Position numbers and translations under genes: made by a program. The notes beneath the pieces were generated by a model. It saw nothing but the letters and a program-made list of their open reading frames with translations. It had not been told where the DNA came from and did not search any database. 8,852 nt of DNA, taken from a virus. Its lineage: Duplodnaviria; Heunggongvirae; Uroviricota; Caudoviricetes. Below are positions 2,321 through 8,407 of this stretch, one piece after another. Position 1 is the stretch's first letter; each line of letters begins with the position of its first letter. The stretch is taken from the IMG/VR virus record IMGVR_UViG_638341087_000017; one strand, written 5' to 3'.

Positions 2321-5300
2321 TCAGCTGATACTGATACCTGCTGTGGATTTTTTCATCACCACAACCAGCAGATCGCTGATACTTGCTGTGGGATACCAGT
2401 TATTTACCAGCCATGCTGACACCGAAAACTCCAGCGTCATGTGACCGTGACCGGCAGGCATATCAATAACGCCACTGTAAATCAGCGTATTATCCAGCGC
2501 GGTACGGTTATAAATTTCAGCACCGTTTTTCCGCACTATCAGACGGCATGAGGAGTAAATATCAGTATGCTCTCTCTCATGTTTAGCGCCGCTGAATGCC
2601 ACCGCCGGAATAACAATTTGCCGGTCAAACGGCTGATCGTCATAAACCCTGACGGTAATGGTCCCTGATGGCCACCGCTCCGGTGCACGGGAATCCCGGG
2701 GGAAAGCTTTGCCCACTGTTTTAACGAGATCGCCTTCAATCTGGTTCGCGGACAGTTTTCCCAGAACCCGACAGTTCTCGTTAATCGTGACGTTGTTGAG
2801 CGTCCCGGAATTCGCATTCACGTTACCGCTGATATCAGCATTTCTTGCGGTCAGCCTGCCCTCCGGCGTCAGGGAAAACGTCGGGGGGTTGCCGGATGAC
2901 GTGATACTCACCGCAAACAGTCGCTTCAGGAACACGTCGTTCATGAACAGCTGATTCCCCTGCGCCACAAATAACGGCGTGCTGTTGCCGCTCTCCGGAT
3001 TTATCATCGCGATACGGTCAGCCAGCAGCAGTATGTTGCTCAGTGACTGGCCATCAGTATCCTCAATCCCCGCTCCAATCCCGGCCACATAGGGAATGCC
3101 GTCTTTCGTTTTTTGAACCTTCAGCATGTAAAGTGCAGCAAGGTCATCATTTGTGTCCTTCTGCACGCGCTGTATCTGCTGTATGGTGGCGCTCTGGTCT
3201 TCCAGCGTTTTACTGACCGTCTGTGTGATTTCATTGCGGGTTTCGGTGATGGTGGTCTTCATCTCCGCCATCTCATCCGCAAGCTGGCTGTTGTCTATCA
3301 GCTCCCACAGCCCCTGAGCCAGATGCAGTTTTCCTATTTTTTCCCGAAACAGCCCCAGATACCCTTCTGCATCATTGCTGGCCCGGCCACTGGCTTCCAC
3401 AAAAGCAGATTTCCCCACCAGGTTGACGCTGCGCACGTAAAACCAGAAATCCTTCCCGGGCTTAATGTGCGGGCCGGATACACTCCACTGACTGCCGGTC
3501 CCCAGATAACGGGCAGAGGTTTCCACCTGAGATGTGTCTGCGATTTTTGCCTCCGAAAACCAGAACTCAAACTGTACCGTCGGGTCATACACCGCAAGAC
3601 GCGGGACCGCTGTTATCTGAAAATAGCCCGGTGTCAGCTCAATCGTGGCGGGTACCGCAGGTGCATTAATCCTGAACGTGGTGGTGGCCGGTTCGCCCTG
3701 CTGGCCATAACTGTTAATTGCCCTGACTGTCAGGGTGTATTCCCCGAGCGGCAGACCACTGAAACGGTGCGCCGTGTCTGCGGTGATGGCGGTGGTCACC
3801 AGACGGCTGTCTTCTCCGCTTCCGCTGGTCAGGCGCAGACTGAAGCGCACACCCTTCACCACCCGCGGCGTGTCCCATTTCGCCTGTGCCAGATACTGAC
3901 CGTCAGCCGCGCTCACCTCCACCGTCAGGTGCTGCACTGCCGGCGGGATGACGCTGTTCAGCGAACCGGACAGTGGCTCAAAGCTGGCCCCGTTATCCAC
4001 AATGGCTTCTTTTTCCGGCACATGCTGCACTGCCGTGATGGCAAAGGTACCGTCCGTGTTTTCCCGGATGGAAACACAGCGGAACAGGCGACGACGCAGT
4101 GACGGCAGGGAGAGTCCCCACACACCGTATGTCTCCACGCCATCCGGCAGGGTACTGACCTGTATCCGGTCCGGCGCGGGGTGTGCGGTGATGTCCACAC
4201 TCACCGGCTTACCGCTGCCGTTAATCAGGTTCACCGTGGCGGCACCGGTCTCCGGCAGGGTCACCTCACGGTCCAGTGTCAGGGTGCGGCTGGCGGCATC
4301 GATGGACAGGACACGTCCGCCGGTCATGGTCCCGGCATAGTCGTTATCACAGATTTCAATAATGTCACCGGGTGTGTGACGCAGCCCCTGTGACCCGAGC
4401 GTGAAATCCACCGTCTGCGTTTCCAGCAGTCCGGTCTTTATCACCCACAGCCCGGCACGGTGGGCCTGACCGCGACTGGTGCAACCGAACGCATCCATCT
4501 TCAGCAGGTTGCGCCCGTAGCGCAGTATGGCTTCCGGGTCTTCCACCAGTTCCGTGGAGGTCTGCCAGCCGTTCTGCGGGTCGGTGTAATTCACCTCCAC
4601 CGCCGTGTGGCGGTCCTTCAGGGCGCTGAAGCTGTAGCGAAACCCCACGCCGTTATCATCCACCACCACATCGCAGTTGGTGTACGGCCACACCACATCC
4701 GACGGGCGGTCCTGAACGAACGTCAGCGTCTGGCCGTTCCATACCGGCATACAGCGCATCGCCGAGCAGAAATCACTGAGAACGTCCCACGCCTTACGCT
4801 GTTGTGACAGGTACGCATTAAAGGTCATCCGCGGCTCTGTGCCCCCGAAACCATCCGGGACCGTCTGGTCGCAGTACTGCCCGATGGCATACAGCGCCCA
4901 CTTGTCAACATCCGCCGCCACCAGACGTTTTCCCATGCCGTAGCGCGGGTGAGTCAGCATGTCCCACAGGCACCAGGCCGGGTTGTTGCTGTATGCCGGT
5001 TTCAGGCTGCCGTCCCAGATGCCGCTGTACGTGCGTTTTTCCGGGTCATAGTTTGACGGTACCTGGATGATGCGACCTCGGATATGGTAGTTCACCGTCA
5101 TCTGCTGACCGCCAAACTGCTCCGCATCCACCTGCATCCCCACAATCGCCGTGTTCGGGTAGCACTGTTTCACATCGATGATTTCGGTGTATGACGACCA
5201 GAGCGTCTTATTCTGCAGCTGGTCCGGGGTGCTGTCCGCTGTCTCCCGGACCATCCGGATGTTAAAAGGACGGGGAGGCAGATTATCCAGAATCACCGAC

Positions 5301-5794
5301 GCCAGAAACTGCGAGGTGGTCTTGCCGTTAATGGTGACATCCTTTTCCGTCACCCAGTTACCGTTACGCTGCAACTGAATCAGCAGTCGGACAGAAGAGG
5401 GATTACGGTCGCCCTTTGAGGTGGTCTCCACCAGTGACTGCACCCCGAAGGTGACCCGCAGACGGTCAATGTTCGCTGACGTGATGGTGCGCGTCACCGG
5501 CTTTGCCTTCGTCACTTCCACGCCCAGTGCGGTTTCAGAGCCGGATGACTCAAAACCTTCCGGCGGTGTCTGCTCCTGCTCCCCGGCGCGCCAGACCGCT
5601 GTCACACCATGTATCACAGGATTACCGTCCGTGTCCGTCAGCGGGGTTTTGTTCACCAGGATACTCTGCAGCCCCTTCACCGGACCTTCAATCGGCCCTT
5701 CACCAATGGCGTCAATCACGCTCATCATCTGCGTGGACTTAAGATTGTCCTTTGCCTCTACCGGCGTGTGCGCCTTGCCGCCACCTTTACCCAC
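2321..5794 (-). CDS. J: Tail tip / central tail fibre host-specificity protein J
   Basis: 1157-aa product starting [22 protein letters not shown]... with long stretches that match my memory of lambda gpJ ([100 protein letters not shown]). Start is GTG at 5794-5792, preceded by AGGAGAGGGGG. Size and position (after I, before lom) are canonical. The last ~150 residues differ from my recollection of lambda. Confidence 0.95.
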
Positions 5795-5837
5795 TCTGTC
5801 CCCCTCTCCTGTCTGATGTCTGAATCTGTTTATGCCC

Positions 5838-5869
5838 CAAAAACGACAGGCACCCCGGAGGGTGCCTGT
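5838..5869 (-). terminator. Terminator-like hairpin in the I-J spacer, oriented for the minus strand, ~45 nt upstream of the J start
   Basis: Plus strand 5846-5869: acaggcaccc-cgga-gggtgcctgt, a perfect 10-bp GC-rich stem with 4-nt loop. On the minus strand the stem is followed by CG then TTTTT (plus-strand 5839-5843 aaaaa). Whether it terminates, attenuates or only stabilises RNA cannot be decided from sequence. Confidence 0.45.
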
Positions 5870-6003
5870 GTCATGACGGAATAAAATTTCTGAATTTCTT
5901 CACATTTTCTGTACGCCCCCGTGGCAGATATCATTCCCGGGCGTTACAGTTTTTTCGGGCCAATAAAAACAAAACTCCCTGTGGTTAATCTTCATTTTCT
6001 GTT

Positions 6004-6035
6004 CCCGCAGCCTCCATACACTGCGGGATTTTTTT
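6004..6035 (+). terminator. Terminator-like hairpin in the I-J spacer, oriented for the plus strand (antisense to the tail operon)
   Basis: Plus strand cccgcag-cctccataca-ctgcggg followed by a, then 7 T (6029-6035): 7-bp stem, 10-nt loop, U-tract on the plus strand. It abuts the I stop codon (6043-6041). No credible plus-strand gene lies upstream of it. Confidence 0.45.
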
Positions 6036-6040
6036 ATGCT

Positions 6041-6721
6041 TTACCCCTGCCGCCCGATAACCACCACCTTCCCGCCCCCGCCTTCATCACGGGTGCTGAT
6101 GTCCTGGGAGATTCGCCGGGAGCCAACCAGCATTTCACCGTAAGGCACCGGCATCGGGTTCCCCTGAGCAATCATGTTGTCCAGTGAGGAAAAATACGTG
6201 TTCTGTCTGCCGTTATCCGTTGCGCGGTAATCCGGTGTTTTTGCCTTCGGGGCAAGCATCTGAGCCACACCACCCAGTATCATGCTGGCCCCCAGTGAAA
6301 ACAGCATCGTGGTGGCAGAAAAACCACCGGCTGCCAGGGCTGAACCCCATAACGCCATTGATGCCCCGGCAGTGAAGAAAGAGCCCACGATGGCTGCCGC
6401 CCCCAGCACAATCTGCAGTCCACCTTTTCCGGCCCCGGCCAGTCGCGGCACAATGTGGATGACCGTTCCCTCACCCAGCTGTTCGTGAAGACGGGCGTAC
6501 ACCGCCTCCGGTGCCGTGTCCTCACCGCGAATACGTATCTGGTACCAGCCTTCGTTCATCTGACGGCGGAATCCCGGCATCTGCATCGACAGGGCACGGA
6601 TGGCTTCCGCTGCCGTGTTCACATACAGGCTGAGGCGGCGGCCAAATCGTTGTAAATCCCCGTGAAGGCAGATGCGTGCCAGTGGCGGTGACGCCAGACA
6701 GAATGCGTTCGTCGTTGCCAT
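6041..6721 (-). CDS. I: Tail tip assembly protein I
   Basis: 226-aa product MATTNAFCLASPPLARICLHGDLQRFGRR...IHIVPR.AGA...QIVLGAAAI.GSFFTAG...FSLGASM.LGGVAQMLAPKA.TP...DNG.QNTYFSSLDNM.AQGN..PV.YGEM.VGSR..SQ.IST.DEG.GG.VVVIGR matches my memory of lambda gpI in sequence and length. The ATG at 6721 has an upstream GGGAGAGG. The start overlaps the 3' end of K by 103 nt. Confidence 0.93.
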   Translation of the reverse strand: MATTNAFCLASPPLARICLHGDLQRFGRRLSLYVNTAAEAIRALSMQMPGFRRQMNEGWYQIRIRGEDTAPEAVYARLHEQLGEGTVIHIVPRLAGAGKGGLQIVLGAAAIVGSFFTAGASMALWGSALAAGGFSATTMLFSLGASMILGGVAQMLAPKAKTPDYRATDNGRQNTYFSSLDNMIAQGNPMPVPYGEMLVGSRRISQDISTRDEGGGGKVVVIGRQG

Positions 6722-7362
6722 TTTTCGGAATACCTCTCCCGTTTACTCAGTTGTTCAGGCAGATGGTGAAGCAGTTCACCGTTGCCGCAGTAAATGGCGG
6801 CATGATTGGCCACCGATGCGCCAAAGCAGCACAGCAGGATATCGCCCGCCTGTGCAGAGGACAGGGGCACCCGGTAAAAGCCGGTGACCGCCATATTGTC
6901 CAGGTAAAGGTTCTGACCGTTGCGCCACCAGTCATCCTCACGCTCAAAATCCGGCATATCAATTCCCGCCAGATGGTAGGCATCCCGGAACAGCGTGTAA
7001 CAGTCCGTCACCCCGTGCTCAAAGCGCCGTCCTGTCAGATGTGGCACACAGCGGAATTTATGAATTTCCCCCCGGCAGACCAGCCACCAGGACAGTGCAC
7101 TTTTTATCTGCAGCCGCCGGTCAGCCTCGCTCAGCCAGGGCAGCCCACCGGGATGACTGTGGACCAGTGCCACAATCTCCCCCTGCATCTCTGCCCGCAG
7201 CCAGTCTTCCGGTGCGATACGAAAATACGCCTCCGGCTCTGCAGAAATATTCACACAAGGGATATACCGCTCCCCCTCCGGCGTTCTCACCACGAAGCCG
7301 CACGACTCCGCAGGCGCACACCGCCGGGCATGCGCCAGAATCGCTGATTCTGTCTGTGTCAT
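6619..7362 (-). CDS. K: Tail tip assembly protein K (N-terminal MPN/JAMM-like domain plus C-terminal NlpC/P60-like domain)
   Basis: 247-aa product MTQTESAILAHARRCAPAESCGFV... contains the JAMM signature H-S-H-x7-S-x2-D (VHSHPGGLPWLSEAD) and a downstream Cys/His pair typical of NlpC/P60 (GVTDCYTLFRDAY ... ANHAAIY). Position between L and I is canonical. Start is ATG at 7362, 5 nt after the L stop. Confidence 0.93.
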   Translation of the reverse strand: MTQTESAILAHARRCAPAESCGFVVRTPEGERYIPCVNISAEPEAYFRIAPEDWLRAEMQGEIVALVHSHPGGLPWLSEADRRLQIKSALSWWLVCRGEIHKFRCVPHLTGRRFEHGVTDCYTLFRDAYHLAGIDMPDFEREDDWWRNGQNLYLDNMAVTGFYRVPLSSAQAGDILLCCFGASVANHAAIYCGNGELLHHLPEQLSKRERYSEKWQRRTHSVWRHRHWHASAFTGIYNDLAAASACM

Positions 7363-7367
7363 TGGAT

Positions 7368-8066
7368 TTACTGCGAAAGTTTGTTAATGGAAAGGAAACC
7401 GCCAAAATTAGCCACCATGCCGCGCATCTCACACCCGCGCATGCACTTGCTGCATCTGTCCTTACGGATATCGGTGGTGGGTTTATCGAACTCATCCGCC
7501 ACAGCCCCGCCCGTGTAACCACACTCATCAGAGCGGTAGGTCCACATACAGGTATTCGCCAGCATGATGCGACCGGGAAACAGCGCCCCGTCCGTCTCCG
7601 TCGGTGTCGCCAGCACAAACGAGGCCGTCATGGCCGTCAGCGATGACATCTGCTCCACCACCCACCGGTCCGTCAGCTCCTGCTCAGGGTCTGCCTCAGG
7701 ATTGCCCGCCACAAAATTCACCGCATCCAGAAAACGGGCATACACCCGGCGGCGGACCACCGTGGCCCCCACCAGACTCTGCAGGTCCTCCGCCATCCCG
7801 GTGACAAGGCCAAACAGATTGGACACCGTCAGCGACGGGCGGGCACTGCTGCCCCGGCCGTTCATCTCAAAGCCGCTGCCGTCAATCGGGTATGCCTCAT
7901 ACTTACGCCCCTGCCAGGTGACCGGCTCCCCTTTTTCATTCAGCTCATTACAGAAAAAATACCGCTCACCACCCTGTACCGTCAGGTCGATTTCCCAGAG
8001 TACCACCCGCGGTGACTGCTCTGACTTAACCGACTCGTTCAGACTTTCTTCGCGAATATCCTGCAT
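7368..8066 (-). CDS. L: Tail tip assembly protein L (Cys-rich C-terminus consistent with an Fe-S cluster)
   Basis: 232-aa product MQDIREESLNESVKSEQSPRVVLWEIDL... with a C-terminal cysteine cluster (DECGYTGG...DRCSKCMRGCEMRG). Length equals lambda gpL as I recall it. Position between M and K is canonical. The ATG at 8066-8064 shares a nucleotide with the TGA stop of M. Confidence 0.93.
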   Translation of the reverse strand: MQDIREESLNESVKSEQSPRVVLWEIDLTVQGGERYFFCNELNEKGEPVTWQGRKYEAYPIDGSGFEMNGRGSSARPSLTVSNLFGLVTGMAEDLQSLVGATVVRRRVYARFLDAVNFVAGNPEADPEQELTDRWVVEQMSSLTAMTASFVLATPTETDGALFPGRIMLANTCMWTYRSDECGYTGGAVADEFDKPTTDIRKDRCSKCMRGCEMRGMVANFGGFLSINKLSQ

Positions 8067-8407
8067 CAGTTCACCACCTGCTCAATCGTACAACTGAAAT
8101 CACTGTACCTGGCGTTATCTGTGACGCTCCACTCCCGGCACACCACCCTCACCGTCCGGTTATGTTTCGGCGGTCGCCACAAAAAGGCACGGTAACCACC
8201 ATGCCAGGATAAAAATTCATCCAGCCAGCGCCGGGTTGGTTCATCCGTCACCCGGAACACCGCCTGAAACGTCTTCAGTCTGGCATTAAGTCCCGTCGGT
8301 CGGCGCTGTTCATAACCGTCACCAAACCGAACCCTCACCACCGACGGTTTCTCACTCACCTGCATCCCTTCACGCGGGACCAGATGCAGCGTTTTTATCT
8401 CAGCCAC
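8066..8407 (-). CDS. M: Tail tip protein M
   Basis: 113-aa product containing ...VRVRFGDGY.QRRPTGLNA.LKT.......FL..HGG...FLW.PP...R...V.C..WS.......F..EQVVN, which is lambda gpM-like. Start is GTG at 8407-8405, overlapping the H stop (GTGGCTGA); an in-frame ATG 14 codons downstream is an alternative start. Stop overlaps the L start. Confidence 0.82.
   Translation of the reverse strand: MAEIKTLHLVPREGMQVSEKPSVVRVRFGDGYEQRRPTGLNARLKTFQAVFRVTDEPTRRWLDEFLSWHGGYRAFLWRPPKHNRTVRVVCREWSVTDNARYSDFSCTIEQVVN

Follow-up and report, generated by a model that had tools for sequence, protein, structure and literature searches.

A common and probably exchangeable receptor-binding allele at the C-terminus of a lambda-family J protein

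The window, an 8,852-nt stretch of viral DNA (Caudoviricetes; IMG/VR record IMGVR_UViG_638341087_000017), carries a tail-tip gene cluster in the order M-L-K-I-J-lom-stf, colinear with those of lambda and phage 21 (Table 1). In phage 21 an annotated terminator occupies the same J-lom position as the hairpin of the window. The small orfs between I and J gave no PHROG match, and an Rfam scan of the window returned no match.

Table 1 Features of the tail-tip region in the window
Feature	Position (nt)	Strand	Remarks
M	8066-8407	minus	ORF and Pfam
L	7368-8066	minus	ORF and Pfam
K	6619-7362	minus	ORF and Pfam
I	6041-6721	minus	ORF and Pfam
J (tip attachment / central tail fibre protein)	2321-5794	minus	1157 aa, GTG start, uninterrupted ORF
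Alpha-helical shaft of J, aa ~815-886	3136-3352	minus	A further variable module that assorts independently; exceeds the lambda shaft by 28 aa (four heptad lengths)
Exchanged 'specificity' cassette, J aa ~961-1140	2375-2914	minus	Breakpoints from mismatch profiles
Segment under study, last 159 codons of J plus stop	2321-2800	minus	Fibre/linker end (aa 999-1023) and receptor-binding domain (RBD; aa ~1024-1157), Ig-like beta-sandwich
Terminator-like hairpin with T-run	2284-2303	minus	18 nt past the J stop, ahead of lom
lom homologue (Ail/Lom outer-membrane beta-barrel)	1655-2254	minus	PF06316, E=1e-118; conserved right flank of the cassette
stf-like gene	385-1596	minus	ORF and Pfam

By its architecture (hub, two FNIII/Ig domains, helical shaft, tail-tip fibre with beta-prism, C-terminal RBD) the product of J is a lambda-family tip attachment protein. 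Six Pfam domains, all well over their cut-offs, follow one another from N- to C-terminus (PF24801, PF13550, PF24421, PF24489, PF09327 and PF12421), with FNIII-A_GpJ, Phage-tail_3, Ig_J, Ig_J_second, Phage_Tail_Tip and Ig_GpJ_C as the named matches. A phmmer comparison with lambda gpJ in the PDB (8iyk) covers aa 1-834 and 863-1156 with E=0. The J C-terminal receptor-binding domain (PF12421, Ig_GpJ_C) is found at aa 1027-1157 with E=9.8e-38 and 129.7 bits (cut-off 26.2 bits), the match spanning profile positions 1-135 of 135. At the nucleotide level, J is 97.2% identical to that of Stx1a_EH182.

Comparison with lambda J (retrieved from NC_001416) revealed unequal divergence along the protein. 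The hub (aa 1-608) is 76.5% identical to lambda, and the FNIII/Ig region (aa 609-814) and the central straight fibre (aa 887-998) are each 67% identical, while the last 159 aa share only 44% (tblastn, E=2e-33) or 44.7% (MAFFT) identity. Identical residues number 603/814 over aa 1-814 vs 71/159 in the RBD segment (Fisher p=2.1e-12). The original prediction of a C-terminus of ~150 residues divergent from lambda was thus borne out, its position and the peptides it quoted being correct, and no high-identity alignment of this region to lambda J was obtained (44-45% only). The accompanying view that the rest of J is conserved holds for hub, FNIII/Ig region and fibre, but fails for the shaft, which is the most diverged J segment relative to lambda (16.7% identity) as well as being longer. 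Nor is the resemblance of the C-terminus to lambda confined to general architecture, as had been supposed: the RBD is a clear homologue, in the same Pfam family and with the same fold (Foldseek TM 0.78).

In an AF2 model of the RBD segment (pLDDT 77.8) nine strands were predicted, with values of at least 79 over most of the core. The top Foldseek matches of this model are 9wcb and 9wca (A8 gpJ) and 8xcj and 8xck (lambda gpJ RBD), all with TM 0.76-0.79; the next matches have TM of 0.40 or less. The A8 gpJ chimera is the best structural match (E=6.5e-18, TM 0.76) and also the best sequence match in the PDB (E=1e-56, 62% identity), differing from the window in sequence and length of loops L1 and L2. 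The LamB-binding lambda RBD (TM 0.78-0.79; E=1e-33 by sequence) has PF12421 and the J architecture in common with the window, although L4 differs by 1 aa and the shorter lambda shaft is unrelated in sequence.

Four predicted bottom loops (L1 to L4; RBD residues 32-45, 71-80, 102-104 and 132-143), labelled 'bottom' from the topology of the AF2 monomer and their closeness to published indel hotspots, coincide with, or lie a few residues from, the lineage-defining indels described at lambda 1012, 1048/49, 1077/78 and 1107 (Maddamsetti et al. 2018, PMC6646904). RBD types in our panel differ by indels at or beside all four sites. Loop lengths in the window equal those of lambda at the first three sites (1012, 1048/49 and 1077/78) and are phi21/A8-like at L4, the length of L3 being uninformative as every RBD type but that of 434 has it. 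The window RBD is no simple copy of any characterised specificity, and its loop set looks hybrid. Identity to lambda is 31% in the bottom loops and 46% elsewhere, a weak and non-significant difference (p=0.13), and loop-concentrated divergence is significant only in comparison with 434 (p=6e-4). An explanation by changes in the loops only was dropped on this account, as strands have diverged too; with divergence spread over strands and loops, no changed contact surface stands out from the sequence.

Breakpoints were mapped with a 30-nt mismatch profile against same-backbone relatives and a 100-nt identity profile. Nucleotide identity along J is at least 94% upstream of the cassette, 59-66% within it and 93-98% downstream; over aa ~961-1000 the sequences differ moderately and over aa ~1020-1135 heavily, while the final ~17 codons are once more held in common. 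Uniform divergence along same-backbone J genes was not seen, the drop being confined to ~2914-2375. Downstream, lom is 94-100% identical (nt) to lom of relatives with other RBD types. J backbones 95-98% identical to that of the window carry RBDs with only 66% (Stx1a_2598), 65% (YYZ-2008) or 44% (phage 2851) identity, the difference between backbone and RBD being significant in each same-backbone comparison (Fisher p=8e-29 to 9e-52). Conversely, VT1-Sakai has an RBD 98% identical (aa) to that of the window on a J that is frameshifted and has a different shaft/fibre module (shaft 58-74% nt identity). The suggestion that the C-terminus is a mosaic host-range module is well supported by these combinations and by the localised drop in identity.

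A modular, independently recombining 'specificity region' of J has been described previously (Maddamsetti et al. 2018, PMC6646904), and the cassette mapped here roughly equals that region (lambda 960-1132). Judging from sequence, J of the window has both of its hallmarks, a separate history with discrete breakpoints and indels at the four sites. The fusion point used in engineering (lambda aa 964, ~aa 990 of the window; PMC11338833) falls within the natural junction. The J tip module, its boundaries and its exchangeability are already documented and in use in engineering, as in chimeras of lambda J joined at aa 964 and in delivery vectors with A8 or 1A2, the latter a second OmpC-specific gpJ chimera (PMC11338833).

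A homologue search with the 159-aa RBD gave almost exclusively short partial proteins, which served to gauge prevalence and to build the alignment for structure prediction, and RBD typing was carried out on full-length J from phage GenBank records. Four clusters, mutually 37-47% identical, were distinguished; identity between the window type and the phi21/A8 group is 62-66%. RBDs 97.5-100% identical to that of the window are found in Stx1a_EH182, Stx2a_2409 and the JNE series, VT1-Sakai (Sp15), PPompW, JLK-2012 and vB_EcoS-640R1 (protein identity 100% for the Stx2a_JNE and Stx1a_EH182 phages and 98% for VT1-Sakai). In this EHEC lambdoid phage group whole J is 94-97% identical (nt) in the closest members and ~89% in VT1-Sakai and PPompW, with gene order I-J-lom-stf as in the window and a backbone a few percent (nt) removed. 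Phi21 shares with the window a related RBD (66-69% identity; 66.5% over the segment under study), the long shaft (+28 aa), 9/12 residues of L4 and an identical C-terminal stretch of 16 residues, but its backbone is only ~76% identical, and relative to the window it lacks 4 aa in L1 and has 5 extra aa after L2. Turner and 2H10, both natural phages, have an RBD identical to that of A8 (sequence taken from the PDB alignment), and the RBD of YYZ-2008 is 99% identical to it. J of phage 434 has a homologous RBD, 42-44% identical to that of the window and set apart from it by indels in each of the four loops; this type is also present in PhiR11_1 and in phage 2851, whose J backbone is 89-98% identical to that of the window by domain.

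Near matches to the window-type RBD are present in ~60% of complete E. coli genomes, with matches of at least 90% nt identity in ~3,165 complete-genome records (median 2 and maximum 9 copies per genome). The RBD is thus a distinct, very common and already sequenced allele class of E. coli prophages, a real but ordinary case, and its thousands of member sequences, together with the matches in these genome records, indicate a class under selection and not decaying.

Taken with high confidence, the segment at 2321-2800 is the C-terminal RBD of a lambda-family J, a common allele of 'VT1-Sakai/Sp15 type' forming part of an exchangeable cassette and, by homology, docking on a porin. This RBD, a homologue of the lambda gpJ RBD with the same beta-sandwich fold, sits on an EHEC-type J backbone and behaves as a ~0.5 kb cassette that recombines in conserved sequence to either side: the end of the central straight fibre at one flank, the last ~17 codons together with lom at the other. 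As a result one backbone is found with four or more RBD types, and one RBD with different shaft/fibre modules. By analogy with lambda gpJ-LamB and A8 gpJ-OmpC, the three RBDs borne at the end of the fibre trimer would dock on a trimeric outer-membrane porin, their four bottom loops entering its extracellular mouth. Docking would then spread the RBDs and twist the fibre, after which the alpha-helical shaft may flip, the tail tip open and DNA be ejected, as in the docking and triggering mechanism described by Ge & Wang (2024; PMC11101478).

A trimeric porin is, on the same analogy, the most likely receptor of the RBD. Lambda J uses LamB and 434 J uses OmpC (PMC11101478), phi21 natively uses LamB (PMC11336670), RBDs of A8/Turner/2H10 type use OmpC (PMC11338833; OmpC chains are contained in PDB 9wcb) and OmpC is the receptor of phi330, the one EHEC siphophage for which a receptor has been proven (PMC12502783). 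J of Gifsy-1 binds OmpC but also the non-porins OmpX and BtuB (PMC12312913), so that a porin receptor is not guaranteed for the window RBD. Gifsy-1 J was rejected as a model, its C-terminus being only ~18% identical to that of lambda and of another type; J of phi330 is a different and shorter protein. A full-text literature search found no published receptor for phages with the window RBD (VT1-Sakai, PPompW, JLK-2012, WGPS2, vB_EcoS-640R1 and the PhiR phages). The step taken in the original prediction, from divergence to a different or altered receptor, is not safe: the phi21 RBD is 47% identical to that of lambda yet uses LamB, while the A8/Turner-type RBD is 82% identical to that of phi21 yet uses OmpC, and percent identity is therefore no predictor of the receptor in this family. 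Phi21 gains OmpC use through I1025T; the counterpart in J of the window is Leu1023, so this change does not pre-exist here, and the residue is uninformative since the OmpC-using A8 keeps Ile.

Recognition of OmpC, as by 434, A8, phi330 and Gifsy-1, with an OmpC-dependent host range of the prophage, is a credible if tentative reading. Most J proteins characterised outside lambda have OmpC as their receptor (these same four), its reliable expression in the gut (PMC11338833) fits the prevalence of the allele, and L4 of the window is identical to that of A8 at 9/12 positions, with an identical C-terminal strand. However, only 4/14 residues of L1 and 4/10 of L2 match A8, with indels, the RBD is only 42% identical to that of 434, and phi330 J is another, shorter protein. 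The RBD may instead still recognise LamB, in which case its divergence would come from drift on a scaffold that is itself conserved, or from an arms race against LamB loops that are polymorphic; this is almost as likely as OmpC. The precedent is phi21, natively a LamB phage in spite of its distance from lambda and, among characterised RBDs, the nearest to that of the window. Agreement with lambda in length at L1, L2 and the L3 site (434 alone departs at L3) points the same way, as does a WPSGT motif in L1 common to lambda, with 7/14 residues of this loop identical, a count that neither phi21 nor A8 reaches. The closeness to phi21 is weak evidence, though, given the OmpC use of the A8/Turner type; moreover, the phi21-specific insertion after L2 is absent from the window RBD, and LamB is not dependably expressed in the gut (PMC11338833), where E. 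coli carries this allele with extreme success.

A receptor other than OmpC or LamB is on the whole unlikely. The hybrid loop set (lengths of L1 and L2 as in lambda, L4 as in phi21/A8) led us to entertain that this RBD class, the commonest J tip allele in sequenced E. coli, recognises an outer-membrane protein other than the known J receptors of E. coli lambdoid phages (LamB, OmpC and OmpF), or is a natural dual-receptor binder; we regard this as rather improbable, but if true it would establish how long-tailed Stx prophages and those carrying effectors mainly enter EHEC. That the divergence is simply decay of a defective prophage gene, devoid of functional meaning, is very improbable. Many EHEC lambdoid prophages are indeed defective, and the VT1-Sakai J with this RBD type is split by its frameshift, but J of the window is uninterrupted with all domains, the RBD protein is 100% identical in many independent Stx phages, the nucleotide boundaries of the cassette are sharp where decay would be uniform, and the core of the AF2 model is confidently folded.

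The J C-terminal cassette decides which outer-membrane protein a lambda-like phage needs and thereby which strains can acquire the prophage, and the prophage here is a relative of long-tailed Stx1- and Stx2-converting phages. Assigning a receptor to this allele class would aid prediction of Stx-phage host range and add a broadly applicable tip for engineering.

The shaft of J (aa 815-886) is 63.9% identical to that of phi21 and 97-100% identical to those of EHEC-type J. Its variation in length is apparent from the spacing between the GYL and YVAGIG motifs, which is 91 in J of the window as against 63 in lambda, and reaches 164 in PhiR49_2.

The window covers the tail-tip portion of a minus-strand, lambda-like late operon. 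J carries the complete Pfam domain set of lambda gpJ, including the receptor-binding domain (RBD; PF12421, aa 1027-1157), and matches solved lambda gpJ (8iyk) with E=0. Segment 2321-2800 corresponds exactly to the last 159 J codons plus the stop codon and holds the peptides quoted in the original prediction.

Genes of the tail-tip operon in the window
Gene	Position	Strand	Remarks
H		minus	end only; first in order
M	8066-8407	minus	
L	7368-8066	minus	
K	6619-7362	minus	
I	6041-6721	minus	
J	2321-5794	minus	1157 aa, GTG start
lom homologue	1655-2254	minus	
side-tail-fibre-like gene	385-1596	minus	collagen repeats
small ORF	114-383	minus	downstream of side-tail-fibre-like gene

J proteins of lambda (NC_001416), phage 21 (phi21) and phage 434 served as references and were aligned region by region. 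The proposed C-terminal divergence is real: identity is 44-44.7% (44% by tblastn of the last 159 aa, E=2e-33) versus 76.5% in the hub and 67% in the FNIII/Ig domains (aa 1-814 to RBD, Fisher p=2.1e-12), and the high-identity C-terminus named beforehand as refuting was not seen against NC_001416. That the rest of J is conserved holds for the hub, FNIII/Ig domains and central fibre, but not for the shaft, the most diverged region (16.7%) and 28 residues longer. The view that the C-terminus shares only general architecture with lambda is too cautious: it is a clear homologue of the lambda RBD, the top four Foldseek matches of an AlphaFold2 model (pLDDT 77.8) being A8 gpJ (an engineered chimera) and lambda gpJ RBD structures (TM 0.76-0.79) and all others having TM <=0.40.

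Amino acid identity (%) of window J to other J proteins, by region
Region	J aa	lambda	Stx1a_2598	YYZ-2008	2851
Hub	1-608	76.5	97.9	97.5	97.5
FNIII/Ig domains	609-814	67	95.1	88.8	89.3
Alpha-helical shaft	815-886	16.7	98.6	97.2	97.2
Central straight fibre	887-998	67	94.6	96.4	96.4
Last 159 aa	999-1157	44.7			
RBD			66.0	64.8	44.0

Since J differs from its lambda counterpart by 24-33% throughout, comparison with lambda demonstrates a host-range module only weakly. Sharper evidence for the predicted mosaic comes from Stx1a_2598, YYZ-2008 and 2851, phages with a J backbone nearly identical to that of the window and RBDs at 66.0, 64.8 and 44.0% (backbone versus RBD, Fisher p=8e-29 to 9e-52). Nucleotide identity to these relatives is at least 94% down to ~2914, 59-66% from ~2700 to ~2400, and back to 93-98% over the last ~17 J codons and lom. 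VT1-Sakai is the converse, with 97-99% nt (98% aa) identity in the RBD and 58-74% nt identity in shaft and fibre (window ~3500 to ~2900). At least two independently assorting modules therefore make up the 3′ third of J, and segment 2321-2800 is the distal of the two. The boundaries of this module (J aa ~961-1140) roughly match the lambda ‘specificity region’ (residues 960-1132), shown to be an independent evolutionary module (Maddamsetti et al., PMC6646904), and enclose lambda aa 964, the fusion site of functional gpJ chimeras (Brödel et al., PMC11338833). The shaft (window 3089-3364, minus strand; J aa ~811-902) is a second variable module, assorting independently of the RBD since VT1-Sakai combines the same RBD with a different shaft and fibre. 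It exceeds that of lambda by exactly 28 aa, four heptad lengths, and GYL-to-YVAGIG spacing is 91 in the window; lambda, 434 and Turner have 63 and PhiR49_2 has 164. In VT1-Sakai (AP000400, 508-3980) a mutation splits J into two overlapping CDSs, annotated as truncated, whereas window J, of the same RBD type, is intact.

Alignment of 16 RBDs (window, 14 phages and A8) gave four groups with 37-47% identity between groups, except 62-66% between groups 3 and 4: lambda (group 1); 434, PhiR11_1 and 2851 (group 2); phi21, Stx1a_2598, A8, Turner, 2H10 and YYZ-2008 (group 3, phi21/A8); and the window type, with Stx1a_EH182, Stx2a_2409, VT1-Sakai and PhiR49_2 (group 4). Stx1a_EH182 and Stx2a_2409 match the window RBD at 100% identity, PhiR49_2 at 90% and the phi21/A8 group at 62-66%; against lambda and 434 identity falls to 44% and 42%. 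A8 shares its RBD fully (100%) with the natural phages Turner and 2H10, and stands at 99% to YYZ-2008 and 82% to phi21; phi21 and Stx1a_2598 share 89%. Four predicted loops on one sandwich face (RBD residues 32-45, 71-80, 102-104 and 132-143; lambda 1004-1017, 1043-1052, 1074-1076 and 1105-1116) lie at, or a few residues from, the four indel hotspots defining J lineages (lambda 1012, 1048/49, 1077/78 and 1107; PMC6646904). In lambda, four bottom loops (L1-L4) insert into LamB (Ge & Wang, PMC11101478). The window type matches lambda in length at the first three indel sites (at the third, 434 alone differs) and is in the phi21/A8 state at the last. Divergence from lambda was not confined to the loops (identity 31% in loops versus 46% elsewhere, p=0.13).

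Reading divergence from lambda as a different receptor is unsafe. The phi21 RBD is about as distant from that of lambda (47% identity) as the window RBD, yet its native receptor is LamB (PMC11336670), and A8-type RBDs, at 82% to phi21, nevertheless use OmpC (PMC11338833; 9wcb). A single substitution, I1025T, gives phi21 OmpC use; its counterpart in window J, located on the trimer axis directly preceding the RBD, is Leu1023 (2726-2728). Stx1a_2598 likewise has Leu there, lambda and A8 have Ile, and 434 has Phe. In the literature searched, no phage carrying a window-type RBD had an experimentally assigned receptor. Weighing the receptors used by related phages, the mixture of loop states and an argument from OmpC expression in the gut, we would tentatively guess OmpC, though at less than even chances; LamB is nearly as likely, and some other receptor less so.

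By homology to the lambda gpJ-LamB (8xcj; PMC11101478) and A8 gpJ-OmpC (9wcb) complexes, three RBDs at the trimeric fibre end would dock on a trimeric porin with L1-L4 in its extracellular mouth, then close at the top and splay at the bottom; the beta-prism fibre would twist, the helical shaft flip and partially refold, and the FNIII strings be released as the hub opens, leading to DNA ejection. All parts required for this relay are present and intact in window J.

By megablast, 3378 of 5426 complete E. coli genomes matched the cassette DNA (2401-2800), with ~3,165 records at >=90% identity, 637 at >=99%, a median of two copies per genome and a maximum of nine. Clusters comprising thousands of proteins from E. 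coli, E. albertii and Shigella also carry the cassette, in every case under the annotation host specificity protein J or phage tail tip protein. The window-type RBD is thus a very ordinary allele. The original prediction, confirmed in substance and corrected in two details, is likewise ordinary, because the sequence is already public (protein-identical copies in published Stx phages), the existing annotation is correct, and earlier work has both described and made use of the recombining, hypervariable J specificity module. The sole remaining point of some value is the receptor of this very prevalent allele class.

The side-tail-fibre-like gene product combines a Prophage tail fibre N-terminal domain with a low-complexity stretch rich in Ala, Ser and Glu, Gly-X-Y repeats of the collagen type and a C-terminal Phage_fiber_C domain. 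The small ORF (89 aa from the probable start ATG 383; phrog_576) is a paralogue of that C-terminal domain, in the position of the annotated tail fibre assembly chaperone of 434. Most of the closest complete E. coli genomes (97% identity) have an IS66-family element inside the 8.8-kb region and some also an IS21-like element; the window has neither, and no complete E. coli genome in the collection searched matched it at >~97.6% overall. Terminator-like hairpins with T-runs lie directly after J (2284-2303) and after lom (1607-1628) on the minus strand, so that lom is possibly a separate transcription unit; phage 21 also has an annotated terminator after J. The I-J gap (5795-6040, minus strand) is 246 nt versus 60 nt in lambda. 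Neither lambda nor phi21 has an equivalent of it, Rfam gave no match and PHROG none for its small ORFs, and across most EHEC-type phages the gap is conserved at 97-100%. It contains a strong terminator-like hairpin (5869-5846; 10 bp, 7 GC, T-run) ~50 nt upstream of the J start and a second right behind the I stop. The J start codon (5792-5794) is GTG in the window and all EHEC-type backbones examined, and ATG in lambda, 21, 434, Turner, 2H10, PhiR11_1 and PhiR49_2.
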